From Gammaproteobacteria bacterium (GTDB lineage: Bacteria; Pseudomonadota; Gammaproteobacteria; SZUA-140), in the NCBI GenBank assembly GCA_026982565.1, contig JALSGV010000024.1, positions 13,341 to 77,340 of the forward strand: DNA of 64,000 nucleotides, written 5' to 3'. Below the pieces are notes generated by a model, which saw nothing but the letters and a program-made list of their open reading frames with translations, ran no database searches and was not told the DNA's origin. Below, in pieces: positions 30,741-61,398 of the stretch (its first letter is position 1; each line of letters opens with the position of its first letter). The translations under genes and the position numbers were made by a program.

Positions 30741-30799
30741 ATGTAGTGAAAACCGCAACGGGTATGTGATAACAATATATAAATGGAATCGCGATAGTC

Positions 30800-32209: not shown

Positions 32210-32211
32210 TC

Positions 32212-40972: not shown

Positions 40973-41198
40973 GAATGTGCCTCCAAATACGAGGGGTGAA
41001 CGGAACGGAGTGTGTCAATCCTCCGGCAAACGAGCGCGCATTATATGTTGTAAAAAAACAACATTCGGGGTGCTAAATTCGCACACCAAAATAATTTTAT
41101 TAACCGCTTGATATGGCTAAGTATTACATGTATATTTGCCAAAATTTGATGTTTGCTGGGGACAGAAACCAACAGGAAAAGTATTAAAGGAGGTTAAT

Positions 41199-42959: not shown

Positions 42960-42993
42960 ACCGGCCTTCTCCCTTATTTCCGGTTTTCAGCCC

Positions 42994-45638: not shown

Positions 45639-47393
45639 ATGCACATACTTCTAAGATTCTTCCGCGTATATCCCTGGCAGTCCGCTTTGATGCTGCTGGC
45701 CCTGCTACTGGCTGGTGTTGCCGAGGGGGTCAGTTTGTCCGCCCTGCTGCCACTTCTCAGTCTGGCCCTTGAACAGGGGAGCCGCAAGGAGGCAACGGAT
45801 GCAGAGGCCAGTGCACAGGGAGACGGGGGGCTGGAAGAGATGGTGCGCAATGCCCTGGAAACCATCGGTTTGACGCCTGGCATTGGCGTACTGCTGGTCA
45901 TCGTGATGCTGGGGATCGTGGTCAAGAATCTGCTCCTGCTGGCGGCGCGCAAGCAGATCGGTTATACCGCGGCGCAGGTGACCACGGACCTGCGTTTGTC
46001 TCTATTGCGCGCCGTCCTGGCTTCGCGCTGGGAATATTTCATCAGACAGCCTGCCGGGCGCATGGCCAATGCCATGACGACGGAGGCCATGCGCGCCTCG
46101 GAAGCCTATATTTACGGCACCACCATGATTGCACGCTGCATCGAGGCCGTCGTCTATATCATCGTGGCGCTCTTGATTTCTTGGCAGGCCACTCTGGCGG
46201 CGCTGGGCGCCGGCCTGCTGGTGCTGGTCGTTACCTATGCCTTGGTAAGAATGTCGCGGCGTGCCGGCAAGCGGCAGACCAAGCTGCTGAAATCCCTGCT
46301 GGGACGCCTGACGGATACCCTGCAATCCGTCAAGCCCCTCAAGGCCATGGGCAGGGAGGATCTGGCCGATGAGGTGATGGCCGCTGAAACAACGAAGCTG
46401 AACCGCGCCCTGCAGAAGGAGGTGTTCAGCAAGGCCGTACTGCAGGCAATCCAGGAACCCATGTTCGTCGGTTTGATCGCCATCGGCATCTATGTGGCGC
46501 TGGTGCTGTGGGAAGTGCCCGCTTCCACCATGCTCATGCTGGCCCTGCTGTTGGGCCGCATCATGGCGCAGATGGGCAAGATCCAGCGCTGGTACCAGAA
46601 GATGGTGACGGCGGAAAGCGCCTTCTGGTCCATTGACGAGACCACACGGGAGGCCCAGGAGACGCGCGAAATTTCTTCCGGCACCCTGCCGCCCAGATTC
46701 GAACGCGCCATCGAATTGCGGGATGTCGATTTTTCCTATGGGGAAAAGGCAGTTTTGCGCCAGGCCTGCCTGCTCATTCCCAAGGGCTCTTTGATTGCGC
46801 TGACCGGCCCTTCCGGCGCCGGCAAGACCACCATTGTCGACCTCATTACCGGGTTGCTGCAGCCGCAGCGTGGGGCTATTTTGATCGATGGCGTGGATCT
46901 GAAGGAGATCGATCTGCGGCAGTGGCGCCGCAAAATCGGCTATGTGCCACAGGAGAACCTGCTTCTTCACGACGATATTTTTCACAATGTCACCCTGGGT
47001 GACCCCAAGCTGGATGAGTCGGATGCCGAATATGCGCTGCGCGCGGCCGGCGCATGGGATTTCGTTTCCGAATTACGGGAAGGGATGCACAGTGTCGTTG
47101 GTGAACGTGGCGCGGGGCTGTCCGGTGGACAGCGCCAGCGTATCATGATCGCCCGCGCCTTGGTGCACAGGCCCGATTTGTTGATCCTCGATGAGGCGAC
47201 CAGTGCCCTGGATCCCAAGAGCGAGGCGGCGATTTGTGACACCTTGAAACAACTGGCCGGGCAATTGACGGTTTTGACCATCTCTCATCAAACTGCCCTG
47301 GTGGATATCGCCGACCGGATCTTTCGCCTCCAGGATGGGCAGCTCGTTCCAGTGGGGCACGGTATCGATAGGCGGTCAGCGTCCGAGCAATGA
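45639..47393 (+). CDS. ABC exporter, fused permease/ATPase (MsbA-like lipid exporter)
   Basis: It has a 6-TM domain followed by a Walker A motif (GPSGAGKTT) and the ABC signature LSGGQRQR. A Walker B motif (LILDEATSALD) follows. It is 584 aa. Confidence 0.88.
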   Translation: MHILLRFFRVYPWQSALMLLALLLAGVAEGVSLSALLPLLSLALEQGSRKEATDAEASAQGDGGLEEMVRNALETIGLTPGIGVLLVIVMLGIVVKNLLLLAARKQIGYTAAQVTTDLRLSLLRAVLASRWEYFIRQPAGRMANAMTTEAMRASEAYIYGTTMIARCIEAVVYIIVALLISWQATLAALGAGLLVLVVTYALVRMSRRAGKRQTKLLKSLLGRLTDTLQSVKPLKAMGREDLADEVMAAETTKLNRALQKEVFSKAVLQAIQEPMFVGLIAIGIYVALVLWEVPASTMLMLALLLGRIMAQMGKIQRWYQKMVTAESAFWSIDETTREAQETREISSGTLPPRFERAIELRDVDFSYGEKAVLRQACLLIPKGSLIALTGPSGAGKTTIVDLITGLLQPQRGAILIDGVDLKEIDLRQWRRKIGYVPQENLLLHDDIFHNVTLGDPKLDESDAEYALRAAGAWDFVSELREGMHSVVGERGAGLSGGQRQRIMIARALVHRPDLLILDEATSALDPKSEAAICDTLKQLAGQLTVLTISHQTALVDIADRIFRLQDGQLVPVGHGIDRRSASEQ

Positions 47394-48521
47394 TCTGACC
47401 CGTTCAACGGTGCATCTGATACTGTCGGGCACGGTCTGCTGAGGGGAAGGAGACTTCTCGTCACCCAGCCATACCGCCTGCCCGGAAGCGATCAGTTGTC
47501 GATGTACCAGGCGAATATCCCGGGTCAGCCGCTGGTGGCCGAATCGCATGAGCATTTTGTATAAAAATGCCCCGAGACGGAAATCGGTTTCTTCCTCGCT
47601 TGCGGCTCTTGCCGGCAGGGTGGCCGACGGCCAGCGCATGGCGTCTTGGCCCGTGCCGAGGTCGAAGATATAGACAGGTTTGCCCGTGGCGCAGGCTTCC
47701 GAGAGCATGGCGATACTGTCCCCGGTGACGATAATGGCCCTGGCCAGGCCCAGATAGGCATAATAGGGGTTGGCCGGGTCATCGGGTTTCCAGCGATAGA
47801 GCTGCATGGGGCAATCGACAGCCGATGCAAAGGCCTCGATGGCGGAGGGGGGGGTGCGTGCGCTGGTGGTGACGAGAAGAGAGCCGCCTTGTGATTGCGC
47901 CAGTTCGCAGGATTGGCGGGCAAGTCGTCGCGCAGCGTGGCGTCCCAGGGTATAGGGGCCGCTGTTACCGCCCATGACGACGGCGATGTATGGCTGGGGC
48001 AGGGATCGCAGATTCTGTGCATGGCCAGCCGCCGCTTCCTGTAAAAGTGCGTCAGTGACCCGGTGCAAGGTGGTGGTATTGTGCAGGATTCGGGGGGCAT
48101 GGGGCAGGCGGTATTGCGGCGTGGTGACGACGAGGTCGAAGTGCCTGAGCTGCGCCCAGTGCCTGCCGAGCAGGACAATGCGGCTCTTTCCTCCCGATTG
48201 TGCCTTGATCCAGCGGCATACGGGCTCGTTGCGCATGCCCGCCGAGATGATCAGGTCGGGCCAGGGGGGGGTGAGGGGGCTCGACCGTTCACGATCGATG
48301 CCCATCAGTGAACTGAGGCGCAGGAGCCCCGGGACAAAATCGTGGTGGCGGTACACGAGGCGCTTGACGGTAAAGGGCCAGCCGAGTGCCTCCGCCAAGG
48401 CGAGAATCTGCACGTTCTCGCCGGCGCGATATCCTGTGACGAGCCATACAGAGGGGGGTGGGGTTTCGTCGCTGATGTCTTCCGGTGGCGCTGGCATGTT
48501 GTTTGGTTTCATCGTGGGCAA
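47376..48521 (-). CDS. ELM1/DUF1022-family protein (predicted GT-B-like glycosyl- or phosphotransferase), paralog 1
   Basis: It shares the motifs PPWPDLIISAGMRNEPVCRWIK, GGNSGPYTL and IVTGDSIAML with two other ORFs in this window. Confidence 0.7.
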   Translation of the reverse strand: MPTMKPNNMPAPPEDISDETPPPSVWLVTGYRAGENVQILALAEALGWPFTVKRLVYRHHDFVPGLLRLSSLMGIDRERSSPLTPPWPDLIISAGMRNEPVCRWIKAQSGGKSRIVLLGRHWAQLRHFDLVVTTPQYRLPHAPRILHNTTTLHRVTDALLQEAAAGHAQNLRSLPQPYIAVVMGGNSGPYTLGRHAARRLARQSCELAQSQGGSLLVTTSARTPPSAIEAFASAVDCPMQLYRWKPDDPANPYYAYLGLARAIIVTGDSIAMLSEACATGKPVYIFDLGTGQDAMRWPSATLPARAASEEETDFRLGAFLYKMLMRFGHQRLTRDIRLVHRQLIASGQAVWLGDEKSPSPQQTVPDSIRCTVERVRSLLGR

Positions 48522-48571
48522 AGGATGTTGTAGAGATGCCGGGTTGATATGTCCCGGCGATTTTATTGTAA

Positions 48572-48602
48572 CCTGAATCCATGGGCTCAGGGCGGATTCA
48601 GG
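48572..48602. repeat. REP-like palindrome, 1.5 copies (CCTGAATCCATGGGCTCAGG+GCGGATTCAGG)
   Basis: It is the same family. It lies in the divergent intergenic region between ELM1 paralogs 1 and 2. Confidence 0.55.
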
Positions 48603-48642
48603 TGTAAGCTATTATACGGCCACCGGGCAATTTCAAACGATC

Positions 48643-49758
48643 ATGTCATCGCAAACCAACAATACCTGTACTCCATCTCCCCGCATCTGGCTGGTCCTCA
48701 GTGACAAACTGGGAGACAATGCCCAGGTAGAGATCATCGCCGATGCGCTGGGTCTGCCCTATGTGACGAAGCGGGTGTACCCCCTGGAGCAATACGTGCT
48801 GGGCAAGCCCCCCTTCAAGGCTTCCCTCTATCATATCGACAAGGTCCGGTCCGACAGCCTGGAGCCGCCATGGCCCGATCTCATACTCACCATCGGGCGC
48901 CGCTCGGCCATGGTGGCCATGTGGATACGAGAACAAAGCGGAGGCCGGACCCGGGTGGTCCTGGTGGGGCGCCCCAAGCGGGATCTGGATCAATATGCCC
49001 TGATCATCGCGCCTTCCCAATATCATCTGCCTGACAGGCCTAACGTGCTGCGCCTCGACCTGCCCCTCATGCGGCCCGACGAGGCGGCCATCGGGAAGGC
49101 GGTGACCTTATGGCGTGAACGTTTTTCCACCATGCAACGCCCCATGTTCGCGCTCATGGTGGGAGGGGCCACCAAGCCTTTCGTTTTCGATGAAAAGGTG
49201 GCGCGGGAATTGACGGCCCGGGCCGCCGCCCTTGCCGCATCCGCCGGGGGAACACTCTATGTCACCACCAGCAGACGTACGCCGCCCGCAGTGGTGGAGG
49301 CCATCAAGGCGGCATTGCCTGAGCACTCACAGTTCTATCAGTGGCGCAAGGATGGCAAGGATAATCCCTATCTTGCCCTGCTCGGGCTGGCCGACTATTT
49401 CATCGTGACGGGCGACAGTGTCTCCATGATGGTGGAGGTGGCCCGGCTGGGCAGGCCCCTGGCTATATTCAGTTTGCCGGTCAGGGATGGGTTCGCAAGC
49501 CGCTTCCAACAGTGGATCTCAAGCCCGAAGATCGGAAAATATAACAGAATCCTCAGCAGATTAATTGTCTCGGCGATATCTCGACTGGGAATACTGGGTT
49601 ATACTCGCGATCTGACGGCCTTGCATCGCGTTTTGGTCGATAGGGGGCTGGCAGTACCCTTTGGCAAGCCTTTCCCCATAGCAGGAGAAAGGGCCCTGGA
49701 TGAACTGCCTCTGGTGGCCGCTCGAGTAAGGAAGCTGTTGGATGAAGAAAATGCATGA
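48643..49758 (+). CDS. ELM1/DUF1022-family protein, paralog 2
   Basis: It has PPWPDLILTIGRRSAMVAMWIR, MVGGATKPF and IVTGDSVSMM motifs. It is divergent from paralog 1. Confidence 0.7.
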   Translation: MSSQTNNTCTPSPRIWLVLSDKLGDNAQVEIIADALGLPYVTKRVYPLEQYVLGKPPFKASLYHIDKVRSDSLEPPWPDLILTIGRRSAMVAMWIREQSGGRTRVVLVGRPKRDLDQYALIIAPSQYHLPDRPNVLRLDLPLMRPDEAAIGKAVTLWRERFSTMQRPMFALMVGGATKPFVFDEKVARELTARAAALAASAGGTLYVTTSRRTPPAVVEAIKAALPEHSQFYQWRKDGKDNPYLALLGLADYFIVTGDSVSMMVEVARLGRPLAIFSLPVRDGFASRFQQWISSPKIGKYNRILSRLIVSAISRLGILGYTRDLTALHRVLVDRGLAVPFGKPFPIAGERALDELPLVAARVRKLLDEENA

Positions 49759-50681
49759 CAGGGTCTACATCGGTGTATCATAACAATATGCCTTTTCTGA
49801 ATATAAAAAGACTTAAGTTATGGCGTTCCGGAAAACGGCGCAGGGCCCACATTTCACTACGCTTCTGTTTCAATGATCTGCGTCTTTTCAGGCGTTATCG
49901 CCAGCCTGTGGAGTCTTTGCTCCACGAGCTTCCGGTGGTTGGAGGTGAGTGGCCGCGGCGCAGTGGTCCACTGCTGTTCACAGTCTGTGATCCGGAATAC
50001 TTCTATTTGCATGCCGAGGCTCTGATGGCATCAATCAATGAGAATGCTTCCGGGACGGCATTGCATTTGCATATGTATGATCCAGGCAAGGCTCAGTTCG
50101 ATGAAGTTGAGCGCTTGGCGCGGAAGTTTGATGGGGTCAACTTGAGCTATACCTGGGAGGAGACCGATTTGTCCTCTCTGAGCGAAGACAAGCGCATTGT
50201 TTACTACCAGTCCGCGCGCTTCATTCGTGTCTACTCCGCGCTGAAGTCCACCCGTACTCCCATCATCGTTCTGGATATCGACAGTCTGATTCGCGGCCCT
50301 GTGGATCAACTCGTCCGCGCGGCCCATGGCGCGGATATCGGCTTGATATTTCGTACAGAACTTTGTCATCCTGGCAAGAATATTTTGGCCTCAACGGTTT
50401 ATGCCGCCCCGACGAGCGCCAGCCTGGTTTTTTTTGAAAGCGTCGTAAAGCGTCTGTCTGTCCATCTGCTGGCGCGCGCCCAGACGGAGATGCTGGATCA
50501 ACGTTGCTTGTGGAGGTGTTACCTGTCCAATAAATCGCGGCTGAAGGTTTGGGGGATACCGCAACGTTTCAGCGACTGGAATCTCACCGAGGACAGCATT
50601 ATCTGGCATGGCAAGGGACCTCGCAAAGGGTGTGACAAGTTTATTCAGGAGAAAAACAAGCTTCTGGTGGTGCAAAATTAG
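49755..50681 (+). CDS. Hypothetical protein, possible DxD-type sugar transferase
   Basis: It is a 308-aa protein with no confidently recognised family. It has a VLDIDS motif. Its start overlaps the paralog-2 stop (ATGA), so the two are likely co-transcribed. Confidence 0.35.
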   Translation: MTGSTSVYHNNMPFLNIKRLKLWRSGKRRRAHISLRFCFNDLRLFRRYRQPVESLLHELPVVGGEWPRRSGPLLFTVCDPEYFYLHAEALMASINENASGTALHLHMYDPGKAQFDEVERLARKFDGVNLSYTWEETDLSSLSEDKRIVYYQSARFIRVYSALKSTRTPIIVLDIDSLIRGPVDQLVRAAHGADIGLIFRTELCHPGKNILASTVYAAPTSASLVFFESVVKRLSVHLLARAQTEMLDQRCLWRCYLSNKSRLKVWGIPQRFSDWNLTEDSIIWHGKGPRKGCDKFIQEKNKLLVVQN

Positions 50682-50732
50682 CCTGCATTTACCAGCTGGC
50701 TGAGGAGATATATTCTGGTCTTAGGGATGTAT

Positions 50733-51989
50733 TTATGAGGTGTTATCTTCTTTCTGGAAGTCGGTGGTCATCAAGTGCTCATATTGCTTGATTGCTTTGT
50801 CGAAAGAGAAAATCCTGGCTCTTTCCACGATTTTATCACGGGGTGGGGGCGATTCCAGTGTTTCAATAATGGCCTCCGCCATGAATTTTTCATCTCCAAC
50901 AGGCACCAGCTTTCCGATCGAGCCATTGTCAAGTATTTCCGCCGGGCCACTGGGGCAGTCGGTACTGACGACAGGGCAGCCACACGTCATTGCTTCAATT
51001 AACGCATTTGGCAGTCCTTCCCATGCAGAAGACAACACAAAAAGCGAGGCCCGGCTATAGAAGCTATGAGGGTTTTGTACATAACCGGCAAAATCGACGT
51101 CAGAACTGATCATCAGTTCTTTGGACAGTCCCATCAGTTCAGTGCGGCACCGCCCTTCACCAAGGATTATCAGTCGTACTGGTCGCTCGGATCGTACCAG
51201 GGCGAAGGCACGCAGGAGGGTCTTGAAGTCTTTTTGTGGCTTCAACTTGCCAGCGGCCACGATTACCGGAATCTTGTCCTGATTCAACCAGGGGTGTTCA
51301 ACGGGTTGCTTGGCCTGGGTCAGGATCTCCGGTCTGAAAACAGGATTATGGATGACGGTGATATGATCTAAAGGCAACCCTGTTATTTTGGCGATATCTT
51401 CTGCCACCCCATAGGAGGGCGCAACGATTTTGTCTGCCAGATGGTAGTAGCAGCGCATGATACGTGGTACGCTGCGCATCCACTTTGATTTGGCATTTTT
51501 TGCCGAACTTGAGATATGGTTGCGCACATTCACAAAAAACCTGGTTTTGTTCCCGCATAGCTGCGCGGTCAGGAGCAGAACCAGGTTGGGATAATTCAGG
51601 AATGACATAATGGTGTCCGGCCGGTGTTGGTGGATATAGCCATAAAGTGAATGGATGGGCGGTTTTTCTTTTATGATGGTTCTGATGAGGGGGGCAAGGC
51701 AGGAGTCGCCTCTTTGAATGAGGGTGTATGGCGCCGATGCAAGGTTTCTCAATATGGCGACTGCCAGAAAGCAATAATGGAACATCCCAGAGTAATAGTA
51801 TGGGCGCAAGTTAATTATATTGATATTGCTGTTATATGACCTGAGCGTGTCCAGGAGCCAGCCGCGGTCTTCTTCAACCAGGAGATCGACGGCGTGTCCA
51901 TTCTGAGAAAGACCCTTGACGATGCTGGCCACTACTTGCTCGGCGCCACGTGCAGATTCTATGGTTCTTATGTATATCGCAAATCTCAT
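50733..51989 (-). CDS. Glycosyltransferase family 4 (GT-B, retaining)
   Basis: It has the C-terminal GT4 motif SSAWEGLPNALIEAMTCGCPVVSTD and is 418 aa. Confidence 0.85.
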   Translation of the reverse strand: MRFAIYIRTIESARGAEQVVASIVKGLSQNGHAVDLLVEEDRGWLLDTLRSYNSNINIINLRPYYYSGMFHYCFLAVAILRNLASAPYTLIQRGDSCLAPLIRTIIKEKPPIHSLYGYIHQHRPDTIMSFLNYPNLVLLLTAQLCGNKTRFFVNVRNHISSSAKNAKSKWMRSVPRIMRCYYHLADKIVAPSYGVAEDIAKITGLPLDHITVIHNPVFRPEILTQAKQPVEHPWLNQDKIPVIVAAGKLKPQKDFKTLLRAFALVRSERPVRLIILGEGRCRTELMGLSKELMISSDVDFAGYVQNPHSFYSRASLFVLSSAWEGLPNALIEAMTCGCPVVSTDCPSGPAEILDNGSIGKLVPVGDEKFMAEAIIETLESPPPRDKIVERARIFSFDKAIKQYEHLMTTDFQKEDNTS

Positions 51990-52286
51990 GATAGATTACA
52001 GTTTGCCGCAGGCTGAATTGCCTTTTGACAGGGTCATTCGCTCGGGCTCGTCTCTTCCAATGACCCAAGCCGAAGTATTATTCAATAAAGACGGCGTCAA
52101 GACAACTTCAAGAGAAGTTCTCCTGTTCTCGCAAGTCAAAGTTGCAAACCGGAGGAGCTAGGTATGTCTATAACTAATTGGCGCCGGGGAATATTACCAC
52201 AATTACAACGCACTGTTTCCGTATATCGGTTTTGCAAGGGAATATTCCGGTTTGCAGGAAGTGTCAGAATCAGGTTAAGCGAATAA

Positions 52287-54263
52287 ATGTGCGGGATCGC
52301 TGGTTTTCTGAATTATTACGGGGAAAAGGCGGGGCCGGACGCGAAGGCGGTCATGTTACGGATGACAAATACCCTTGTGCATCGTGGCCCTGATGCCGGT
52401 TCGGTTTGGACGGATGCCGTTCATGGAATAGCTTTGGGTCACCGTCGCCTGTCTATTATAGATTTATCAGAAGCAGGTGTTCAGCCCATGGTATCTGCGA
52501 GCGGACGTTATGTCATTACCTACAATGGCGAGATCTACAATTACCGGGCGTTGCGCCGCGAATTGGAAATTTCCGGTTATCCTTTTCGTGGTCATTCCGA
52601 TACTGAAGTACTGCTCGCCGCCGTAGAGCACTGGGGTTTTGAAAGGGCCTTGCACCGCATCAGCGGCATGTTTGCTCTTGCAGTCTGGGATCGCAAGGGC
52701 CGTGTATTGATCCTTGCCCGTGACCGTGTGGGAAAGAAGCCGCTTTACTACGGTTGGTGCAATAATACACTGCTATTTGCGTCCGAGCTAAAGGCGCTCC
52801 GCTGCCATCCTGATTTTGACAACACCCTGGATCATAGCGCTTTGGCCCAATATATCCAGTACGGGTGGCTGGCTCAGCCCGCTTCTGTTTTCAGGAATGT
52901 AAGGAAATTGCCGCAGGGAAGCTTTATCCGGATTTCCATGGATGACCGGCCCTGGTCACCCAAGCCCAGACGGTATTGGTCGGCCAAGGATGTAATGCAA
53001 AAGAGGCGCAGGGCGTTATTCTCTGGCAGCTACGAAGAGGCCCTGGAGCGCCTGGAGGATATCCTGGTCGCATCAGTACATGACAGAATGGTGGCGGATG
53101 TGGATCTCGGGGCGTTGTTGTCCGGAGGTGTTGATTCATCGCTTGTTGTTGCCCTGATGAGGCAGTCTGGCAGCAGGCCGGGAGCGACATTCTCCATTGG
53201 TTTCTGGGAGCCGAAATACAACGAGGCAGAATATGCCGCCCAGGTTGCCCGACACCTGGGAACACGGCATCATGAGTTGTATGTGACGCCAGAGCAAAGC
53301 CTGGATATTATCGGTAGATTGCCACAGATATATGATGAACCTTTTGCAGATATTTCCCAGATTCCTACCTATTTAGTATCGGAGCTGGCGCGGAGCGAGG
53401 TGAAAGTCGTTCTGTCAGGAGATGGCGGTGATGAGCTTTTCGCCGGATATACACGGTATTTTGAGTGTCTCCGGCGTTGGAGGCGCAGCTCTCGCCTGCC
53501 TTTAAAAGCACGTCATATTCTGGGCGCCGCCATTGACTCATTAGGACGCTATAGCTGGGAATTGTGCAAGCCGCTTGATTATTCCCATGAGCGTAAGCTG
53601 CCAAAATGGCGGCGCTTGGGGAGCAAGTTGCAGCGCCATGCATGTGACTGGCATGTGGAGCATCCACAGCAATTGATTGCCAATACTTTTACCCACGGGC
53701 TCTATGGGTGTCAAATGATTCGTGGCGCTGGACATCAAGACACACTTCTTGGTGATTCATCGCAGTGGGTTGAGGGTGTAGACCCTCTTCATGCCATGAT
53801 GCATTACGATTTTGGTTCTTATCTGGCAGATGATATTTTGGTTAAAGTTGACAGGGCGAGCATGGCGGTTGGCCTGGAGGTGCGCTGCCCGTTACTGGAT
53901 AGCCGGCTGATAGAATTTGCCTGGTCACTGCCGAATCATTACCTGGTTGATGACCGGGGAGGCAAACGAATCCTCAAGGATGTGCTCAGGCGACATGTGC
54001 CGCAAACATTGATCGATCGTCCAAAGCGTGGTTTCAGCGTCCCTGTCGCAGACTGGTTGCGAGGTTCTTTACGCCCTTGGGCGGAGGATCTCTTGGATAT
54101 ATCCACATTGCAACGGCAGGGAATTTTTAATGCCGGGAGCGTGCATCGGCTTTGGAGGCAGCACTTATGTCGCTGGCGAAACCATACCAATCAATTGTGG
54201 GCCATATTGATGTTTCAGGCGTGGTTGCTTGAAACGGAAACAAGCAGGCGGGACGAACTCTGA
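52287..54263 (+). CDS. asnB: Asparagine synthetase (glutamine-hydrolysing)-family amidotransferase
   Basis: It has the N-terminal MCGIAG nucleophile and an Ntn-GATase domain. An adenylating synthetase domain with the SGGVDSS PP-loop follows. It is 658 aa. Confidence 0.85.
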   Translation: MCGIAGFLNYYGEKAGPDAKAVMLRMTNTLVHRGPDAGSVWTDAVHGIALGHRRLSIIDLSEAGVQPMVSASGRYVITYNGEIYNYRALRRELEISGYPFRGHSDTEVLLAAVEHWGFERALHRISGMFALAVWDRKGRVLILARDRVGKKPLYYGWCNNTLLFASELKALRCHPDFDNTLDHSALAQYIQYGWLAQPASVFRNVRKLPQGSFIRISMDDRPWSPKPRRYWSAKDVMQKRRRALFSGSYEEALERLEDILVASVHDRMVADVDLGALLSGGVDSSLVVALMRQSGSRPGATFSIGFWEPKYNEAEYAAQVARHLGTRHHELYVTPEQSLDIIGRLPQIYDEPFADISQIPTYLVSELARSEVKVVLSGDGGDELFAGYTRYFECLRRWRRSSRLPLKARHILGAAIDSLGRYSWELCKPLDYSHERKLPKWRRLGSKLQRHACDWHVEHPQQLIANTFTHGLYGCQMIRGAGHQDTLLGDSSQWVEGVDPLHAMMHYDFGSYLADDILVKVDRASMAVGLEVRCPLLDSRLIEFAWSLPNHYLVDDRGGKRILKDVLRRHVPQTLIDRPKRGFSVPVADWLRGSLRPWAEDLLDISTLQRQGIFNAGSVHRLWRQHLCRWRNHTNQLWAILMFQAWLLETETSRRDEL

Positions 54264-54418
54264 AACCCGGTTTCACTGAGAGTGGCTTTAGCGGAGAGCG
54301 TGACGCGGGATGCCGGATTCCGATATAATCAGCCATCCTCAAGCGCCGTGATCTAACGCCTGTCCCCTAATAACATACTGTATGTGCGAGAGAATATATT
54401 GAGAATGCAGGAGAGCTG

Positions 54419-55354
54419 ATGCAAGTTTTTTTGAAAAAAATCACCCGGGAACTGGTCCTGCTACTGATGTTTTTCTTCCCGGAGGAAAAGAAGATCGCCG
54501 TCGAGCGCTGGCTGCGCGGGCGCGAGGAATTCCGCAAGCTCAAGCAGGCCGATTGCGTGGTGGTTTCCTTTGGCAAGAGCGGACGTACATGGCTGCGGGT
54601 CATGTTGTCGCGCTTCTACCAGGTGCGTCATGGGCTCTCGGAGAAACACCTGATGGGTTTCGATAATCTGCACCGCAAGGTCCCGGAGATACCGGTGATT
54701 TTCTTTACTCATGACAACTACCTCAAGGATTACACGAAACATTTTGATTCAAAAGAAGATTATTTGAGCAAGAAAGTGGTTCTGCTGGTGCGCGATCCGC
54801 GCGATGTAGCGGTTTCGCAATTTTTTCAGTGGAAATACCGCATGCGCGCCAAGAAAAAGAATCTCAACCAGTATCCTGAACATGGCAAGGACGTCCCCAT
54901 CTATGATTTCGTGATGGACCCTCAGGCCGGACTACCCAAGATCATAGATTTCATGAATCTGTGGGCAAAGGAAATGCCGCGTATAGAGAATATACTGGTG
55001 GTGCGTTACGAGGACCTGCGTGCCAGGACTGCCGAAGTCCTGAGGCAAATCGTTGAATTCGTTGGTACTCCCGGTACAGAAGAACAGATCCAGCAGGCTG
55101 TGGAGTTTTCATCCGTGGAAAACATGAAGAAGCTGGAAGAAAAGCGGACTTTCTGGCTCAGCGGCAGCCGCATGGTGCCCAAGGACCGCAAGAATCCCAA
55201 TTCCTACAAGGTGCGGCGCGCCAAGGTGGGCGGCTACAGCGACTACTTCGATGAGCAACAGATTGCCGCCATCGAACAGGTGGTTAACGAAACCCTGTCC
55301 CCCGTCTACGGTTATGGTGCGACGCAGAGGGACGACCGCGTTGCCAGTGCTTGA
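54419..55354 (+). CDS. PAPS-dependent sulfotransferase (NodH/Sulfotransfer_3-like)
   Basis: It has a 5'-PSB motif (SFGKSGRTWL) and a 3'-PB motif (LLVRDPRDVAVS). It is 311 aa. Confidence 0.75.
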   Translation: MQVFLKKITRELVLLLMFFFPEEKKIAVERWLRGREEFRKLKQADCVVVSFGKSGRTWLRVMLSRFYQVRHGLSEKHLMGFDNLHRKVPEIPVIFFTHDNYLKDYTKHFDSKEDYLSKKVVLLVRDPRDVAVSQFFQWKYRMRAKKKNLNQYPEHGKDVPIYDFVMDPQAGLPKIIDFMNLWAKEMPRIENILVVRYEDLRARTAEVLRQIVEFVGTPGTEEQIQQAVEFSSVENMKKLEEKRTFWLSGSRMVPKDRKNPNSYKVRRAKVGGYSDYFDEQQIAAIEQVVNETLSPVYGYGATQRDDRVASA

Positions 55355-55452
55355 AACCCGCCCCAGAACGGGGAATGTGTGGAACAAGTATATTAAACCA
55401 CACATTCAGTGTGATATATTTTGCTGTATTTATATTCTAAGGGAGTCTGACA

Positions 55453-56361
55453 ATGGACTATTGTGTATTCATTCAAACCAATCATAAGCAATATATTGGC
55501 GCGTTGGTTGCAGAATACGCGCTGAAAAGGAACTCCAGGCACGCGGACAAATTCGACGTTCGCATCATGCACATGAAAGATTATCCTTTCTTTGAAGCGA
55601 AGGAAGGCCAGCTTTATCTGCGCGACGGCGCCAAGCGTACCTGGCTCAATGACGACCTGCAATCCTTCACGCTCACCCGTTTCATGCCTCCCGAACTGAT
55701 GGGTTACCAAGGACGTGCCGTGGTGATCGATCCCGATGTCTTTGCCGTGGGTGATGTATGGGAGCTGTTGTCCAGGGACATGGAGGGCAAGGCCATTATG
55801 TGTCGTCCCCGCTCAGGAAGAAAGGGAAAGGTCTATGGCTGTCTCGCCAGCAGTGTCATGTTGCTGGACTGCGCCAAGCTGACGCATTGGCGTGTTGAAG
55901 AGCAATTCAACGAAATGTTCGAGTTCAAGCGGGATTACATGGACTGGATCTGTGTCAAGCTCGAGCCCCGCGAGACCATCGGTTTGCTGGAGAACGAGTG
56001 GAACGACTTTGACAAGTTGACCGAAAAGACCAAGATGCTCCACACCACCAAGCGCAAGACCCAGCCATGGAAAACAGGGCTGCCGGTGGATTTCAGGCCT
56101 CCTGAGCGGGTGAGGGGATTTTCACCCCAGGGTTGGCTGCAATCCTTGCGGCGGCAGTTGTTTGGGGAGTATGGGCTGATGGGGCACTACAAACCTCATC
56201 CCGATCCCAATCAGGAAAAATTCTTCTTCGGGCTGCTGAAGGAGTGCGTTGAGAAGGGCATCGTTACGGAAGAAATGATCCGGGAGCAGATGCGCCTCAA
56301 CCATGTACGCCATGACGCCCTGGAGGTGCTGGAGCGTACGCCGCCGCTGGCTGCCGCCTGA
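55453..56361 (+). CDS. GT8-like (GT-A fold) putative glycosyltransferase, tandem paralog A
   Basis: It has a DxD-like VVIDPD motif and a C-terminal H..K..QPWK motif resembling the GT8 HxxGxxKPW motif. It is 302 aa. Confidence 0.45.
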   Translation: MDYCVFIQTNHKQYIGALVAEYALKRNSRHADKFDVRIMHMKDYPFFEAKEGQLYLRDGAKRTWLNDDLQSFTLTRFMPPELMGYQGRAVVIDPDVFAVGDVWELLSRDMEGKAIMCRPRSGRKGKVYGCLASSVMLLDCAKLTHWRVEEQFNEMFEFKRDYMDWICVKLEPRETIGLLENEWNDFDKLTEKTKMLHTTKRKTQPWKTGLPVDFRPPERVRGFSPQGWLQSLRRQLFGEYGLMGHYKPHPDPNQEKFFFGLLKECVEKGIVTEEMIREQMRLNHVRHDALEVLERTPPLAAA

Positions 56362-56376
56362 TACCGCTGGCCAATC

Positions 56377-57297
56377 GTGGAGACTGATACCGTGGAACAT
56401 TGTGTTTTTATCCACACCAATCACAAACAGATCGTCGGCGCCCTGGTGGCCCAGCATGCCTTGCGGCGCTATTCTCGCCACAACGACAAGTTCGATGTGC
56501 AGATCATCCATACCAAGGATTATCCTTTCCTGCGCGAGCGCGAGGGGCAGGAATATCTGCGGGATGGCGTGAAAAGAACCTGGCTCTATGATGACCTGCA
56601 GTCCTTTACGCCGTTGCGCTTCATGCCGCCTGAATTGATGGGCTACAGCGGGCGCGCCGTGGTCATCGACCCGGATATCTTTGCCGTCAGTGACGTTTGG
56701 GACCTGCTGTCCCGCGACATGGATGGCAAGGCCATCATGTGCCGCATGCGCGCCGGCCCCAAGGGATTTATCGACCGCTGCTGGGCCAGCAGCGTCATGC
56801 TGCTGGATTGCGCCAGGCTGACACACTGGCGGGTGGAAGAGCAGTTCAACGCCATGTTCGAGTTCAAGCGCGATTATTCCAAATGGGTCTGCCTCAAGCT
56901 CGAGCCTCGTGAGACCATCGGCGTCCTCGAGGATGAATGGAATGACTTCGATAAATTGAGCAGCGAAACCAGGATGCTGCACAATACGCGGCGACTGACC
57001 CAGCCGTGGAAGGCCGGGCTGCCCATTGATTGGCGGCCGGCGGAGAAATTCCGCCTGTTTCCTCCTCTGGGCTGGCTGATGCGCGCCAGGCGCAAGTTGT
57101 TTGGGGAATACGCCCTGCTGGGAAGCTACAGGCGCCATCCTGATATCAAACAGGAACAGCTTTTCTTTGGGTTGCTGAGGGAGTGCCTGGAAGAGGGAGT
57201 GGTAACGGAAGAGATGCTGCGCACAGAGATGCGGCAGAATCATGTAAGGCATGATGCCTTTGAGGTTCTGGAGCAGACACCACCTCTGTCTGCCTGA
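56377..57297 (+). CDS. GT8-like (GT-A fold) putative glycosyltransferase, tandem paralog B
   Basis: It is a 306-aa protein about 65% identical by eye to the upstream ORF. The VVIDPD and HNTRRLTQPWK motifs are both conserved. Confidence 0.45.
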   Translation: METDTVEHCVFIHTNHKQIVGALVAQHALRRYSRHNDKFDVQIIHTKDYPFLREREGQEYLRDGVKRTWLYDDLQSFTPLRFMPPELMGYSGRAVVIDPDIFAVSDVWDLLSRDMDGKAIMCRMRAGPKGFIDRCWASSVMLLDCARLTHWRVEEQFNAMFEFKRDYSKWVCLKLEPRETIGVLEDEWNDFDKLSSETRMLHNTRRLTQPWKAGLPIDWRPAEKFRLFPPLGWLMRARRKLFGEYALLGSYRRHPDIKQEQLFFGLLRECLEEGVVTEEMLRTEMRQNHVRHDAFEVLEQTPPLSA

Positions 57298-57336
57298 TGT
57301 GGACTGGCGCCCTCCCGGTTCAGACGCCCGGGATTC

Positions 57337-58233
57337 TCAGCACTTGTAGCGTTTGAAGAACTTCCTGTTGCGTAAAGCATGTTTCCGGGCCTGCATGACA
57401 TGGCGCCTGATTTCCTGCCAGAATGTCAGGTAGGTGAATGATGTTCGTGGGGATCCTGATCCACCATGGTCTGGCGACGCCCTTCCGGTCTGTTTCTTCC
57501 GGTGCTGATCCCAGGTCACGGCATAGTCACTTTGCATGGGGGGTGTCTGGAATAATGGTTTTTGCCCGGTCTTCCTCGCGTGTACCCACAGCATTAAGGG
57601 GCGGGCCGTTATGACGCGCATTCTTTTGCCTGCGATGCGGGGGTCGGCAACACGGTAACAGCGATGCCTCCTGCTGGCCTCTACGGAGGTGAACGGGGAT
57701 TCGATGACGCTGACCGATTCAGTGACGAATCCATTGTCATGGGAAAAAACCCGGTAGAACAGCTCCGGGGAAAACTGATAGAGGCCATGGCCGAGGAGAT
57801 TGTTTGCCGGAACATTGATGAAAATGCTGCCACCCGTTTTGACCATCTCCATGTAGTTCATCAGTACCTGCCGCACATCGAAGATATGTTCCATGGTGCC
57901 GCCATCGATGAGTACATCGAAGGCGCCATGGAACGTCTTTGGAACGGGATGGTTGAAATCATGGGTGATGTCGGCGCCCTGATAGTCGGAATAGTCGAAT
58001 GACGTAACAGTCTCTGCGTCCAGTACCTGGCGGATGAATTCGTCGGCAAATCCGTTACGGAACAGGGAGGCGGGCGGTTCAGGGTTCGTCATGCCCCTGC
58101 ATTTTTGCAGGCGTTCCAGGTCTTCCCGGGGTATACAAAGGGAAAGCCGTCCAATCGTGGCGGTTTTTCTGAAATTGGTTCCCCGATTCCGTGCATCGAC
58201 AAGATGTGTGCCTGTGATTGTGGTGATCCCCAT
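57337..58233 (-). CDS. Putative SAM-dependent methyltransferase-like protein
   Basis: Motif II/III-like segments are present (FDVLIDGGTMEHIFD; MVKTGGSIFINVP). Motif I is not clear. The start is uncertain. Confidence 0.35.
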   Translation of the reverse strand: MGITTITGTHLVDARNRGTNFRKTATIGRLSLCIPREDLERLQKCRGMTNPEPPASLFRNGFADEFIRQVLDAETVTSFDYSDYQGADITHDFNHPVPKTFHGAFDVLIDGGTMEHIFDVRQVLMNYMEMVKTGGSIFINVPANNLLGHGLYQFSPELFYRVFSHDNGFVTESVSVIESPFTSVEASRRHRCYRVADPRIAGKRMRVITARPLMLWVHARKTGQKPLFQTPPMQSDYAVTWDQHRKKQTGRASPDHGGSGSPRTSFTYLTFWQEIRRHVMQARKHALRNRKFFKRYKC

Positions 58234-58251
58234 CTCTAATCCTTGTTTTTC

Positions 58252-59238
58252 TCAGTGATAATGCGAATACCTGTATCCCAGCAGGCTGGTGAACATGCCC
58301 AGTCCTTCCGATACACGGAAGGCCCCCGAATAGAATCTGCCTTTGTTCCGGTTCCAAGGCAGGAATGATCCTACCATGATGAGCGAACCTGACACTATGT
58401 TGGTGATGGAACGGGTAAGGGTCTTGAATAACAGTTTTGCCTTTTTCCAGTTGCTGCCGGCATATCTGGTGAGTTGAAGTTTGGTGATGAGCTTGAGGTT
58501 GCCACGGCGGAATTCCGTTTGCAACAGGTAAGTGAAGCGGGCCCGTTGCGGCGGCACCCTTTCAATGGCCCTGGCCTGCGGCGCCCAAAAGATGCGATAG
58601 CCTTGTTCCCGGACTTGCCTGAAGAACAGTTTGTCCTCGCCGCCACTCAGGGCCAGCCTGTTATCGAAGCGCAGCCCCGATTTCCTGAGCATGGTCTTGA
58701 GCAACAGGCAGTTTCCCGTGGCTGCCGAGTTCAGTTCCTGCCCCTCGTCTAGCTCCTGATGCCAGCGGGGGGTTGCAAAGAAGCCACCTTCCCTCATCCA
58801 CTGCGGGACATGGCCCGTGAAGGAGGGGAGAACCGGGCCGAAGATGACTTCGCCTTGTGTGCGGGTCTGGATTAGCAGCAGCTGTTCCAGCCACGTTGGC
58901 TCGGGAATTTCGTCATCGTCGAGAAAGGCAATGAAGTCGGTCTGAGGTGGCGCCTGATCCAGACAGGCGTTGCGCGCATGGCTGATGCCACGCTCGATCA
59001 CAGGCACGTAGATCATGGGAATGGAGGTGAACTGGTGAAAATCCCGGCAAATCTGCTCATTGACCTCACTGGCCTCGTTGTCAGCGATAAGGACCGTAAT
59101 GGCGGGGGTTGATATGCGTTCGAAAGTCAGAGCAGAGATGCCGTCCAGCAGGTCTTTCAATCCCCGCGGTCGCTGGTAGGTGCATGCGCAGATACAGACA
59201 TGAACATTGCCCGTTGTCGGAGGCGTTTCACTGGACAT
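58252..59238 (-). CDS. Glycosyltransferase family 2 (GT-A)
   Basis: It has CICACTYQRP, an acidic FLDDDE motif and a GGEDKLFF segment. It is 328 aa. Confidence 0.82.
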   Translation of the reverse strand: MSSETPPTTGNVHVCICACTYQRPRGLKDLLDGISALTFERISTPAITVLIADNEASEVNEQICRDFHQFTSIPMIYVPVIERGISHARNACLDQAPPQTDFIAFLDDDEIPEPTWLEQLLLIQTRTQGEVIFGPVLPSFTGHVPQWMREGGFFATPRWHQELDEGQELNSAATGNCLLLKTMLRKSGLRFDNRLALSGGEDKLFFRQVREQGYRIFWAPQARAIERVPPQRARFTYLLQTEFRRGNLKLITKLQLTRYAGSNWKKAKLLFKTLTRSITNIVSGSLIMVGSFLPWNRNKGRFYSGAFRVSEGLGMFTSLLGYRYSHYH

Positions 59239-60475
59239 GAGGTGATACAGGCCTTGCCATATGCCGGGGTTCGGTGCGGAACATTCCCTTTACACGTTGT
59301 ACTGTCCGAGTCAGATCATCCTGAGGTGCGGAATCGTTTTCTCCGAGTGGTTCTCCCAGCCATGCCGCCCGGCCTGCCTGGATCAGCCGCTCATGGAGGC
59401 CGCGCACTTCACGCCGCATGCGCTTTGGTCCCAGCCACATGGCCAGGCGGTGTGAGAGGGGGCGCAGGCGGAAGTTATAGCCATAACGCCACCAGGGAAG
59501 CCTGTCTCCAGGCGCGGGGGGGCGGTGAGCGCCAGGATCGTCGGCAAGATCGAAGATATAGACGGGTTTTCCCGTCTCGCAGGCCTCACAGACCATGGAG
59601 ACGCTGTCTCCCGTAACGATGAATGCATCGGCCAGGGCGAGAAAGGCGAAGTAGGGGTTGTCCTTGTCATTTGCTGACCAGCAGTGGTAGTAAGCAGGTG
59701 ACTGGATCAGGTCCCGCAGTGCCGGCATGGCGTGGAGAGGCGTCCGCGCGCTCGAGGTAACCAGCAGGGAGCCGCCGCACCGTTTTGCCAGTGCGTCGGC
59801 GCTTCGTGCCAGGGTGCGGATCTTGATGTCATTGAGGGTGAAGGGGCCACTGTTGCCTCCGACGAGCAGGGCGATAAAGGGATGGGGCAGGTGCGAAAGC
59901 CTGTCCGTCCATGCGCGGGCTGCCGAGGCAAGCCGCTGCTCAGTAATGCGGTGCAGTGGAAGCATGTTGTGCAGGATATTTGTGGCCTGGGGCAGGCAAT
60001 ATTGAGGGGTTGTGACGATGAGATCGAATTGCGCCAATGGAGCCCAGGGACGGCCAAGATGGACGAGGCGTGTCTGTCCATGGGATTGTTGCCGTATCCA
60101 GCGGGCAACGGGCTCGTTGCGGCGCCCGGCAGTAATCACCAAGTCTGGCCATGGTGGAGCCAGTGGTGTGGATTCGTGCTGTTTTATGCCCGCCAGCGTC
60201 GGCCCCAGCAGCAGGTTGCTCAACAACTCGCTTTTCCGATACACCATGTGCTTGCTCTCGTAGGGCCAGCCGAGCGCTTCGGCCAGGGCAAGGACCTGGT
60301 TGTTGTCTCCCGCCTTGTGTCCCATCAGCAGCCATGTCTGGGGAACTTTTTCCCGATTGGCGTAGATGTTGCCATGGGGAAACGGTGTGGAGCTGGGTGG
60401 GGGTGGAAACGGGGCAGGCATTGTTACATTATAGCAAGCATTCAACGGAACACGCCCTGGCGGTACAGACGCCAC
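59228..60475 (-). CDS. ELM1/DUF1022-family protein, paralog 3
   Basis: It has PPWPDLVITAGRRNEPVARWIR, VGGNSGPFTL and IVTGDSVSMV motifs. It is 415 aa with a longer N-terminus. Confidence 0.7.
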   Translation of the reverse strand: MASVPPGRVPLNACYNVTMPAPFPPPPSSTPFPHGNIYANREKVPQTWLLMGHKAGDNNQVLALAEALGWPYESKHMVYRKSELLSNLLLGPTLAGIKQHESTPLAPPWPDLVITAGRRNEPVARWIRQQSHGQTRLVHLGRPWAPLAQFDLIVTTPQYCLPQATNILHNMLPLHRITEQRLASAARAWTDRLSHLPHPFIALLVGGNSGPFTLNDIKIRTLARSADALAKRCGGSLLVTSSARTPLHAMPALRDLIQSPAYYHCWSANDKDNPYFAFLALADAFIVTGDSVSMVCEACETGKPVYIFDLADDPGAHRPPAPGDRLPWWRYGYNFRLRPLSHRLAMWLGPKRMRREVRGLHERLIQAGRAAWLGEPLGENDSAPQDDLTRTVQRVKGMFRTEPRHMARPVSPHVQ

Positions 60476-61398
60476 ATGAGGCCCCAGATGAATATCAGGG
60501 GATAACGGCGCAGGCGTGGCGTGATTTCAATAGTGGCGCCCGAGTGCCGCTCCAGTTTCCAGATGAGGTAGTCCAGCCCGCCTTCGAAGGTGAAGAAGGC
60601 CTTCAGCAGGCGCGCCACTGACAGCAATTTTCCCTGGACGATGCGCAGGCGCCAAGCGGCCTTGTTGCCAAGGCTTTGATGTCTTGCAACGGGTTCTTGG
60701 CAAAAGGCGGCGCCATTTCCATTTGCCTGATGAATTCCCGGGAACGAGGTCAGGGCAAGGCCCGTGATTTCATCGAAATAGGTTTCAAAATGTTGGTAAA
60801 TCTCCTTGCCGCGTTGTCCCTTCTCCACGCGCAACTCCGCACGATAGGTAAGGCCGAGCCCTTTTTCCCATATGTCGGCAATGGTGAAATTCGGGGGGAG
60901 TGATGGCAAGACGCGCGCCATAAAGGTCATAATCGCTTGTCCCAGACTGGAGTGGATCTGGCTGGTGGCGGCCTGGTCGCGCGCATACAGCAATCCCGTG
61001 GGCTGGGCGAAACGCGCCCAGACATAGGAGTGAAACCAATGTGCGCAGCCTCTGTGCAGGTCCTGCCGGGAGAGCACGGCGTATTTGCTGCGCAAGACTC
61101 CTTGGGGATGTCTGGCTTCCAGGTAGAATACGTTGGGCGGCAGCAGGGTGTTGAGAATGGCCAGCCGCCTTTTTTCAAAGGCTTTGTGGTAGTCATCGAC
61201 AATGACATAGAGATCCACCAGCCCATCGAAGGGGTCGCCTCCTCGCAGGCATGAGCCATAAAACAGGATGGCCAGCAGGGAATCGCCGTAACGTTCCCGC
61301 AGGGCATCCCGCAATGTATCCAGGGCCGGATCATGTGGCAGGCCGGTTTGTTTGGCAATGGTTGCAATGAGGGCGGGTGGCGGGGCAGGGATCTTCAT
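60442..61398 (-). CDS. Nucleotidyltransferase-fold protein, Tam41/Mmp37-like (putative CDP-lipid synthase type)
   Basis: It has the Pol-beta-like NTase signature (LLAILFYGSCLRGGDPFDGLVDLYVIVDD). It is 318 aa and overlaps the paralog-3 start. Confidence 0.45.
   Translation of the reverse strand: MKIPAPPPALIATIAKQTGLPHDPALDTLRDALRERYGDSLLAILFYGSCLRGGDPFDGLVDLYVIVDDYHKAFEKRRLAILNTLLPPNVFYLEARHPQGVLRSKYAVLSRQDLHRGCAHWFHSYVWARFAQPTGLLYARDQAATSQIHSSLGQAIMTFMARVLPSLPPNFTIADIWEKGLGLTYRAELRVEKGQRGKEIYQHFETYFDEITGLALTSFPGIHQANGNGAAFCQEPVARHQSLGNKAAWRLRIVQGKLLSVARLLKAFFTFEGGLDYLIWKLERHSGATIEITPRLRRYPLIFIWGLMWRLYRQGVFR

Follow-up and report, generated by a model that had tools for sequence, protein, structure and literature searches.

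Three diverged ELM1-family proteins in a gammaproteobacterial sphingolipid locus as candidate head-group transferases

What is the task of three related ELM1-family proteins encoded in one bacterial locus? This question is raised by the genes E1, E2 and E3, found in a 64,000-nucleotide stretch of contig JALSGV010000024.1 of a gammaproteobacterium (assembly GCA_026982565.1), called the window in the following. The original prediction described them as a three-fold expansion of an uncharacterised family within a lipid-tailoring island, and suggested three successive transfers or different acceptor specificities. We consider it fairly probable that E1, E2 and E3 are non-redundant, anciently diverged transferases of the GT-B type, which form the conserved inner part of head-group assembly for a complex anionic sphingolipid.

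Family membership, fold and age of E1, E2 and E3

A profile scan assigned all three proteins to PF06258 (Mito_fiss_Elm1, clan CL0113 GT-B), as had been proposed, at scores well beyond the gathering threshold of 27 bits (Table 1). The matches cover positions 1–260 of the 304 profile positions, and each protein carries about 100 C-terminal residues past the matched region. None of them matched an NCBIfam model; the newer NCBI name for such proteins is 'ELM1/GtrOC1 family putative glycosyltransferase'. According to the gene calls of the public assembly, E1 and E3 start later than in the open reading frames listed before (47376–48521 and 59228–60475), and the start of E2 is unchanged.

Full-length pairwise identity amounts to 48% for E1/E3, 38% for E2/E3 and 36% for E1/E2, in agreement with the expectation that the paralogs are clearly diverged and not near-identical recent copies. 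Two of the three sequence blocks quoted as common to them, PPWPDL..RWI and VTGDS(I/V)(A/S)M, are present in E1, E2 and E3. The third, GGNSGP(Y/F)TL, occurs in E1 and E3 but not in E2, which reads GGATKPFVF.

The function of a bacterial ELM1 protein has been demonstrated only since late 2025, for KdoT alone and on the lipid A-core. Purified KdoT of Acinetobacter baumannii (A1S_2903, 'ELM1-like') transfers KdoIII from cytidine monophosphate (CMP)-activated 3-deoxy-D-manno-oct-2-ulosonic acid (Kdo) onto Kdo2-lipid IVA in vitro, as reported in December 2025 (PMC12856342). The second Arg of its SRRT motif (R180) is required, the first is dispensable, and a Rickettsia homologue gave partial complementation (PMC12856342). 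The view that bacterial ELM1 proteins are uncharacterised is thus outdated. In earlier work, deletion of A1S_2903 had resulted in a Kdo2-lipid A chemotype. A1S_2903 belongs to the outer-core locus of A. baumannii; GtrOC1, GtrOC14, GtrOC19a/b and GtrOC22 of the Acinetobacter outer-core locus are PF06258 proteins, and judged by locus position KdoT is very probably GtrOC1. The Pseudomonas aeruginosa proteins PA5001–PA5003 were considered as further ELM1 proteins but turned out to be an RfaB-type glycosyltransferase, a PIG-L deacetylase and a GNAT protein.

The residues of the KdoT motif are retained in the window. The S, the second R and the T of S-x-R-T are 100% conserved across 356 homologues and correspond to the invariant S217, R219 and T220 of E1. 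E2 reads SRRT, and E1 and E3 read SART, which keeps the Arg required in KdoT. Family-wide, 61 alignment columns are at least 90% conserved, including PWP, GG, S-x-R-T, NPY and VTxDSxSMxxE, and 17 columns discriminate between clades, E2-type proteins having S-R-R-T together with GGxTKP and E1/E3-type proteins S-A-R-T together with GGNSGP.

The GT-B-like fold that had been anticipated was borne out for E2. Its AlphaFold2 model (predicted local distance difference test score 92.7, predicted template modelling (TM) score 0.89) consists of two Rossmann-like domains with an inter-domain cleft and a helical C-terminal extension. In a Foldseek search of the PDB all matches were GT-B proteins (probability 1.0, TM-score 0.41–0.46, identity ≤14%), the best being UDP-GlcNAc 2-epimerases; the matches also included MGD1, enzymes of GT1 and GT4 and a polysialyltransferase that depends on CMP. 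No PDB chain showed a significant sequence match to the ELM1 profile, and hhalign comparison of alignment A1 with WaaA (GT30), WaaC (GT9), WaaG (GT4) and WaaZ of Escherichia coli K-12 yielded probabilities of at most 0.4% and thus no sequence-level link to these enzymes. The ELM1 family is therefore a distinct GT-B family.

The structural matches bear on the idea that E1–E3 are non-catalytic ELM1-like adaptors, or nucleoside-diphosphate sugar epimerases as in the old COG annotation. Plant ELM1 is indeed a recruitment factor, epimerases head the Foldseek list, and the name 'nucleoside-diphosphate sugar epimerase' persists in some database entries. Nevertheless we regard this idea as very improbable, because purified KdoT is a transferase whose activity residues are invariant in E1–E3, the scores and identities of the epimerase matches are those expected from the shared GT-B fold, and the PDB holds no significant sequence relative of the family.

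How old the three copies are follows from their homologues in other genomes. The homologue set of each paralog is 53–80% identical to its own window protein and 31–53% to the other two, with top orthologue identities of 77% (E1) and 76% (E3). In a neighbour-joining tree of 157 ELM1 genes from genomic loci, E2-type genes are monophyletic (85 of 85) and E1-type genes nearly so (33 of 38); E3-type genes form several groups, sister to E1. The window genes each fall within clades of sphingolipid-locus genes. The E1 clade is adjacent to genes of ATP-binding cassette (ABC) exporters, and the closest relatives of E2 sit directly after cpgC, the gene of a Tam41-like protein.

The three subfamilies co-occur across Gamma- and Alphaproteobacteria and in some metagenome-assembled genomes (MAGs) of Planctomycetota. 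Since ancient subfamilies are found together in many genomes, the predicted expansion within one locus did not take place locally. The proximity of the three genes, which lie within 13 kb, would fit a tandem expansion of recent, lineage-specific origin that yields redundant proteins, but the copies are only 36–48% identical compared to 53–80% for orthologues from other genomes, and they represent three clades with differing conserved motifs and neighbours. Recent tandem duplication is refuted by the cross-genome identities, the clade motifs and the tree, and the probability left for redundant copies of this origin is close to nil.

Genomic context of the ELM1 genes

E1–E3 are located in a sphingolipid locus and not in a core locus for lipopolysaccharide (LPS) or lipo-oligosaccharide (LOS). 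The predicted island is thus lipid-related, and its genes, among them those for serine palmitoyltransferase (Spt), a CpgB-like ceramide kinase and a putative CpgC, represent sphingolipid synthesis and export (Table 1). E3 is the third gene of the operon cpgB-cpgC-E3-GT2, in which genes overlap or are separated by gaps of at most 20 bp. E1 is convergent with the ABC exporter gene, which closes the spt operon, and is transcribed divergently from E2, as had been noted, across a spacer of 130 bp.

For the occurrence of such loci one genome per species was scanned (185,579 species). E3 alone as query gave no match, but with alignment A1 as query at least 474 related genes were detected. The following counts refer to the best 80 E2-type loci in named genomes, 41 of which are full-length. 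Genes for ceramide synthesis (spt, bCerS, cerR, aasR) or cpgB/cpgC are present within 10 kb in 49 of the 80 loci (27 of the 41 full-length loci), sulfotransferase or GT8-like genes in 65, and either ceramide/cpg or sulfotransferase/GT8-like genes in 75. An E1-type gene accompanies E2 in 37 loci and an E3-type gene in 29, the full trio being found in 22. Among the carriers are Halioglobus, Haliea, Porticoccus, Thiogranum, Thiohalobacter, Methylothermaceae, Competibacteraceae, several alphaproteobacterial orders and Planctomycetota MAGs, and also the complete genome of the cultured Halioglobus sp. Uisw_031 (NZ_CP159826, locus at about 309–330 kb). Aquibaculum arenosum CAU 1616 and Fodinicurvata halophila CECT 8472 carry the E2 module, but no ceramide or cpg gene was seen there within 10 kb.

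Each subfamily has its own characteristic neighbour. In the tree set E1 stands beside an ABC exporter gene in 27 of 38 cases, E3 beside a GT8-like gene in 22 of 34 and E2 beside cpgC in 17 of 85. Immediately upstream of E2, cpgC was found in 12 loci, and a sulfotransferase gene is another characteristic neighbour of E2. Separate orthologous clades and separate synteny partners fit the suggestion that the three copies serve different steps or have different specificities.

The close relatives L006, L007 and L008 (L numbers denote related loci) share one frame, which runs from LptF-LptG-metallophosphoesterase through divergent cpgB-cpgC-E3 and a middle segment to E2, followed by divergent E1-ABC-spt-ACP-cerR-aasR and divergent bCerS-nucleotidyltransferase. 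The order cpgB-cpgC-E3 is kept in L006 and L008. The middle segment between E2 and E3 varies: it holds GT4 and AsnB genes in the window, GT11 and GT2 genes in L006 and L007, and Wzy_C, DUF6492 and GT11 genes in L008. The GT4 gene of the window is absent at the same position in all three relatives. In the window the part between E2 and the sulfotransferase gene (about 49773–54263) has a GC content of 50–52% compared to 58–60%, and with its counterparts in L006 (14299–17244) and L008 (14314–20735) it looks like a swappable outer-glycan cassette.

Further genes recur in related loci. A 2-oxoglutarate-Fe(II) oxygenase of about 210–225 aa (PF13640) adjoins E2-type genes in 22 of 83 loci (e.g. L083 12311–12988, L085 12392–13018). 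Membrane proteins of the O-antigen-ligase-like Wzy_C type are encoded in or beside the locus in L008 (16910–17953) and in six Halioglobus-type loci (e.g. L080 19756–20934), a hint at possible ligation of a polymer to the lipid. In 19 loci of Halieaceae a gene for a MurA-like enolpyruvyl transferase lies between those for the metallophosphoesterase and Spt (e.g. L080 1999–3249); this is probably incidental synteny, because murA of the window sits elsewhere (14420–15679).

Of the 80 scanned loci, 3 contain a gene for an LpxO-like hydroxylase and 6 contain one for an LpxL-like acyltransferase; the window itself has no 2-oxoglutarate-Fe(II) oxygenase, LpxO-like or LpxL-like gene. LpxL-like genes occur inside some ELM1/sulfotransferase modules. 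Contig JAXMFU010000002.1 of Competibacteraceae (L003/L014, about 1.19–1.23 Mb) carries a group of at least four ELM1 genes on some 30 kb, alongside LpxL-like, LpxO-like, PAP2 and sulfotransferase genes. The stretch of L003/L014 that was examined showed no spt, and its module may be a version tied to lipid A.

These genes bear on the explanation that E1–E3 are ordinary KdoT-like enzymes of the LPS inner core, which add Kdo or other sugars to Kdo2-lipid A and have sphingolipid genes as neighbours by chance. It draws on the activity of KdoT on Kdo2-lipid IVA (PMC12856342), on the PF06258 genes in the Acinetobacter LOS outer-core locus, and on related genes adjoining LpxL-, LpxO- and PAP2-like genes. 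However, the ELM1 genes in the latter surroundings (L003, L005) form a group apart from the three of the window. The reading of LpxL adjacency of E3-like genes with about 55% identity as a typical LPS context was weakened by this separate clade and by the LpxL-like genes inside some ELM1/sulfotransferase modules, and was not adopted. Moreover, E3 is part of the cpgB-cpgC operon, the adjacencies E2-cpgC, E1-ABC exporter and E3-GT8-like recur across families and classes, and the adjacent ABC protein scores below the MsbA cut-off. We therefore judge an LPS core function of E1–E3 to be unlikely.

Table 1 Features of the sphingolipid locus in the window (positions in the 64,000-nucleotide stretch; L007, related locus)
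Feature	Position	Strand	Evidence and remarks
334-aa protein with N-terminal hydrophobic segment	37507–38511	−	No Pfam match; end of bCerS-side operon
MobA-like nucleotidyltransferase (CpgD/CC_1153-like)	38559–39371	−	PF12804, E 6e-13
Putative bacterial ceramide synthase (bCerS-like)	39414–40556	−	Assigned by position; no Pfam or NCBIfam match
Fatty acyl-AMP ligase (AasR-like)	41136–42959	+	PF00501; NCBIfam NF006624, 784 bits (cut-off 600)
NAD-dependent reductase (CerR-like)	42982–43926	+	PF01370, E 2e-30; between aasR and the ACP gene, as in L007 and Caulobacter
Acyl carrier protein (ACP; AcpR-like), 81 aa	44146–44391	+	DIDS phosphopantetheine motif; 81-aa orthologue in L007 matches PF00550
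Serine palmitoyltransferase (Spt)	44388–45590	+	NCBIfam equivalog NF047599, 618 bits (cut-off 500); PF00155
ABC exporter, MsbA-like but not MsbA	45639–47393	+	PF00664 and PF00005; MsbA model 267 bits, below cut-off 602
E1, ELM1/GtrOC1/KdoT-family GT-B protein, 378 aa	47376–48512	−	S-A-R-T subtype; PF06258, E 2e-56, 191.5 bits
Two hairpin-forming inverted repeats, E1/E2 divergent spacer	48538–48603		Each unique in the window; not conserved in L006 and L007
E2, ELM1/GtrOC1/KdoT-family GT-B protein, 371 aa	48643–49758	+	Canonical S-R-R-T subtype; PF06258, E 4e-57, 194 bits
302-aa protein, variable cassette	49773–50681	+	In operon with E2; no Pfam match; relatives only 26–30% identical
GT4 glycosyltransferase, variable cassette	50733–51932	−	PF00534 and PF13439; in GC dip
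Asparagine-synthase-like (AsnB-like) amidotransferase, variable cassette	52488–54263	+	PF00733 and PF13537; few related loci
Sulfotransferase	54419–55354	+	PF00685, E 2e-28
Two tandem GT8-like (DxD) paralogs	55453–56361, 56392–57297	+	Weak GT8 match, E 0.038
Putative S-adenosylmethionine-dependent methyltransferase	57337–58233	−	Weak PF13489 and PF08242 matches, E about 0.005
GT2 glycosyltransferase	58252–59238	−	PF00535; directly downstream of E3
E3, ELM1/GtrOC1/KdoT-family GT-B protein, 397 aa	59228–60421	−	S-A-R-T subtype; PF06258, E 2e-68, 231 bits
CpgC-like, Tam41-like putative cytidylyltransferase	60442–61398	−	PF09139, E 3e-4, below cut-off; PDB Tam41 6ig2, E 0.008
CpgB-like ceramide kinase (DAGK_cat), 308 aa	61395–62321	−	PF00781, E 2e-9
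Metallophosphoesterase (CC_1158-like)	62468–63427	+	PF00149; divergent from cpgB in most related loci
LptF/LptG-family gene, 3′ part	63440–64000	−	Pair continues past window end

No genes of the locus are better conserved than the tandem GT8-like paralogs. The two are 72% identical to each other, carry the DxD-like sequence VIDPD and reach 57–98% identity across genera, usually above the values for Spt or ELM1 proteins there; the pair probably represents a key conserved step. The putative bCerS gene lies divergent from the aasR-cerR-acp-spt operon, a placement which corresponds to the Caulobacter layout, and 51–78% identical genes are found there in L007 and many scanned loci. It is adjoined by the nucleotidyltransferase gene, like CC_1153/CC_1152 in Caulobacter, and this pairing is kept in many loci. 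The nearest PDB relatives of the nucleotidyltransferase are TTHA0179 and, weakly, the cytidylyltransferase IspD. The 334-aa protein has a 56% identical counterpart in L007, and weak matches (23–27%) adjoin cpgB in Halioglobus-type loci. No NCBIfam match was obtained for the bCerS-, CpgB- and CpgC-like proteins, the nucleotidyltransferase and the GT8-like protein encoded at 55453–56361. In L001, the public contig with the same sequence, two PF03739 genes stand beside the metallophosphoesterase gene (pair at 4798–6982). LptF/LptG-like pairs (26–40% identity) accompany the ABC exporter and E1 genes in many loci.

The spacer between E1 and E2 contains a perfect 10-bp inverted repeat, ACCTGAATCC-N13-GGATTCAGGT, at 48571–48603 and a GCCGGG-N9-CCCGGC hairpin at 48538–48558. 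Each palindrome occurs once only in the 64-kb window; for one of them this holds even when three mismatches are tolerated. The orthologous spacers of L006 and L007 contain neither. As they neither recur in the window nor persist in relatives, the assumed repetitive extragenic palindromic (REP) element was not confirmed. The palindromes could serve as an operator or as a structural element. A promoter scan of the spacer revealed no sigma-70-like site.

Upstream, positions 9–37503 contain housekeeping genes, namely leuS, holA, the RNase G gene, murA, hisD, an aminotransferase gene and the gene of a DegS-like protease, furthermore an alternative complex III operon (27667–33287), rpe, the gene of a haloacid dehalogenase (HAD)-family hydrolase and trpE. 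YhdP, an AsmA-like lipid transporter of 1270 aa, is encoded at 9147–12959. According to these genes the island sits in ordinary chromosome and is bounded by trpE.

Head-group assembly beyond CpgC

In Caulobacter crescentus the cluster CC_1152–CC_1168 is responsible for the ceramide diphosphoglycerate CPG2. CpgB is the ceramide kinase, the Tam41-like CpgC is needed for ceramide phosphoglycerate (CPG), and CpgA is PgsA-like. The cluster further includes the phosphoesterase CC_1158, the nucleotidyltransferases CC_1152 and CC_1153 and a second LptC/F/G set. Colistin susceptibility of Caulobacter depends on CPG lipids. The motif of CDP-alcohol transferases (CDP, cytidine diphosphate), D..DG..AR...G...D...D, is absent in every frame of the window and of 87 of 88 related loci, and no PF01066 gene was found among the called genes of L001 and L006–L008. 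With no CpgA-type CDP-alcohol transferase encoded in the window or in 87 of 88 loci, some other enzyme has to take the pathway on from CpgB and CpgC.

Equating an ELM1 protein with CpgA itself was rejected, as Caulobacter CpgA is PgsA-like and no ELM1 gene has been described in CC_1152–1168. It could instead be that at least one ELM1 copy acts not as a glycosyltransferase but as a CMP-releasing phosphotransferase, the likeliest candidate being the copy after cpgC (E3 in the window, E2 in many other genomes). It would use CDP-glycerate from a CpgD-like enzyme or CDP-ceramide from CpgC and would thereby replace CpgA or supply the CPG-forming enzyme. The locus, like 87 of 88 related loci, retains the MobA-like nucleotidyltransferase and CpgC without the phosphatidyltransferase motif, and the ELM1 gene directly after cpgB-cpgC takes the place of cpgA in Caulobacter. 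The donor of KdoT is CMP-linked (PMC12856342). Moreover, the Caulobacter literature allows for a further, as yet unnamed enzyme that may be required after CpgC, and the Caulobacter cluster includes CC_1167, a TagF-like GT-B gene of the CDP-glycerol type. However, a CDP-linked (pyrophosphate) donor is known for no member of the ELM1 family, and E1–E3 have no Pfam match to the TagF-like PF04464. CpgA could also be encoded elsewhere in the genome, and the nucleotidyltransferase could equal CC_1153 rather than CpgD. On balance we hold this phosphotransferase to be rather doubtful.

For three non-redundant GT-B transferases, the explanation which we favour, the following substrates, order of action and product are proposed. 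Ceramide would arise through the action of Spt, ACP, AasR, CerR and a bCerS-like enzyme, and would be phosphorylated by the CpgB-like kinase. The Tam41-like CpgC would process or activate the ceramide phosphate. The three ELM1 enzymes, working on the cytoplasmic side of the inner membrane, would each add one unit and thus build the conserved inner head-group. The analogy to KdoT makes CMP-activated acidic units the likeliest donors, for example Kdo or a related ulosonic acid; phosphoglycerate from CDP-glycerate would be a further option. E2 with its S-R-R-T and GGxTKP motifs may use a donor or an acceptor different from that of E1 and E3 with S-A-R-T and GGNSGP. The GT8-like, GT2 and GT4 glycosyltransferases, the sulfotransferase(s), the amidotransferase and the methyltransferase would extend and decorate the glycan as a strain-variable outer cassette, and the ABC exporter together with LptF/G-like proteins would carry the lipid to the outer membrane.

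The conserved trio points to an undescribed, LPS-like decorated sphingolipid. A more specific form of this proposal, which we regard as possible but tentative, is a ceramide-anchored LPS-like lipo-oligosaccharide. Here, KdoT paralogs would equip ceramide phosphate with an inner core of the Kdo type (or of phosphoglycerate/ulosonic type). The outer region would be the work of strain-variable glycosyltransferases and sulfotransferases, joined in some genomes by a WaaL-like ligase (Wzy_C), and the MsbA-like exporter with LptF2/G2 would deliver the product to the outer leaflet.

Several observations weigh against a role of the trio in sphingolipid assembly. KdoT, the sole characterised member of the family, acts on Kdo2-lipid IVA and not on a sphingolipid, and it lies outside our tree, its comparison with E1–E3 being based on its published description and motif. 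The bCerS and CpgC assignments are putative and derive from position and weak sequence similarity. Within 10 kb of 14 of the 41 full-length E2-type loci there is no ceramide or cpg gene, and the recurrent unassigned genes of the related loci include no Kdo-pathway genes. Finally, the family also serves contexts in or near lipid A, because an E1/E3-like clade adjoins LpxL-, LpxO- and PAP2-like genes.

Comparison with known systems

In the full-text literature that could be searched, no paper was found that ties the ELM1 family to bacterial sphingolipid genes. Three ELM1 subfamilies belong, in conserved synteny, to loci for sphingolipid synthesis and export. This provides candidates for the enzymes acting after CpgB and CpgC in anionic sphingolipid synthesis, and also for the role of the large bacterial ELM1 family outside Acinetobacter. 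If an LPS-like sulfated glycosphingolipid is indeed the product, it would be a second, sphingolipid-based counterpart of the lipid A-core, widespread in marine and environmental Gamma- and Alphaproteobacteria. Its existence would bear on outer-membrane architecture, on polymyxin susceptibility and on how bacteria supplement or do without lipid A.

Eukaryotic ELM1 shares the Pfam model and the family name with E1–E3. The plant protein, however, is a recruitment factor for a dynamin-related protein in mitochondrial fission, and there is no hint of such a role here.

The Caulobacter CPG2 cluster and the window have in common Spt, ACP, CerR, an acyl-ACP synthetase or acyl-AMP ligase, bCerS (in the window by position), CpgB, CpgC, a metallophosphoesterase, a MobA-like nucleotidyltransferase, a second LptF/LptG pair and a dedicated flippase or exporter. 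CpgA, the TagF-like CC_1167 and a Wzx-type flippase mark the Caulobacter cluster, whereas the ABC exporter, the three ELM1 genes, the two GT8-like genes and the GT2, GT4, sulfotransferase, amidotransferase and methyltransferase genes mark the window.

KdoT resembles E1–E3 in being ELM1-like, in having no transmembrane helix, and in its GT-B architecture and C-terminal S-R-R-T motif. It differs in its size of about 35 kDa (371–397 aa for E1–E3), in its single copy per outer-core locus, in the LOS core setting of its gene and in its acceptor Kdo2-lipid IVA, whereas E1–E3 represent three distinct subfamilies within a ceramide/cpgBC/Lpt-like locus. The arrangement of the Acinetobacter LOS outer-core loci is nevertheless similar to that of the window, as in both a conserved ELM1-family gene stands beside a strain-variable glycosyltransferase cassette. 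The genes for the anchor lipid differ: they are those for ceramide in the window and those for lipid A in Acinetobacter.

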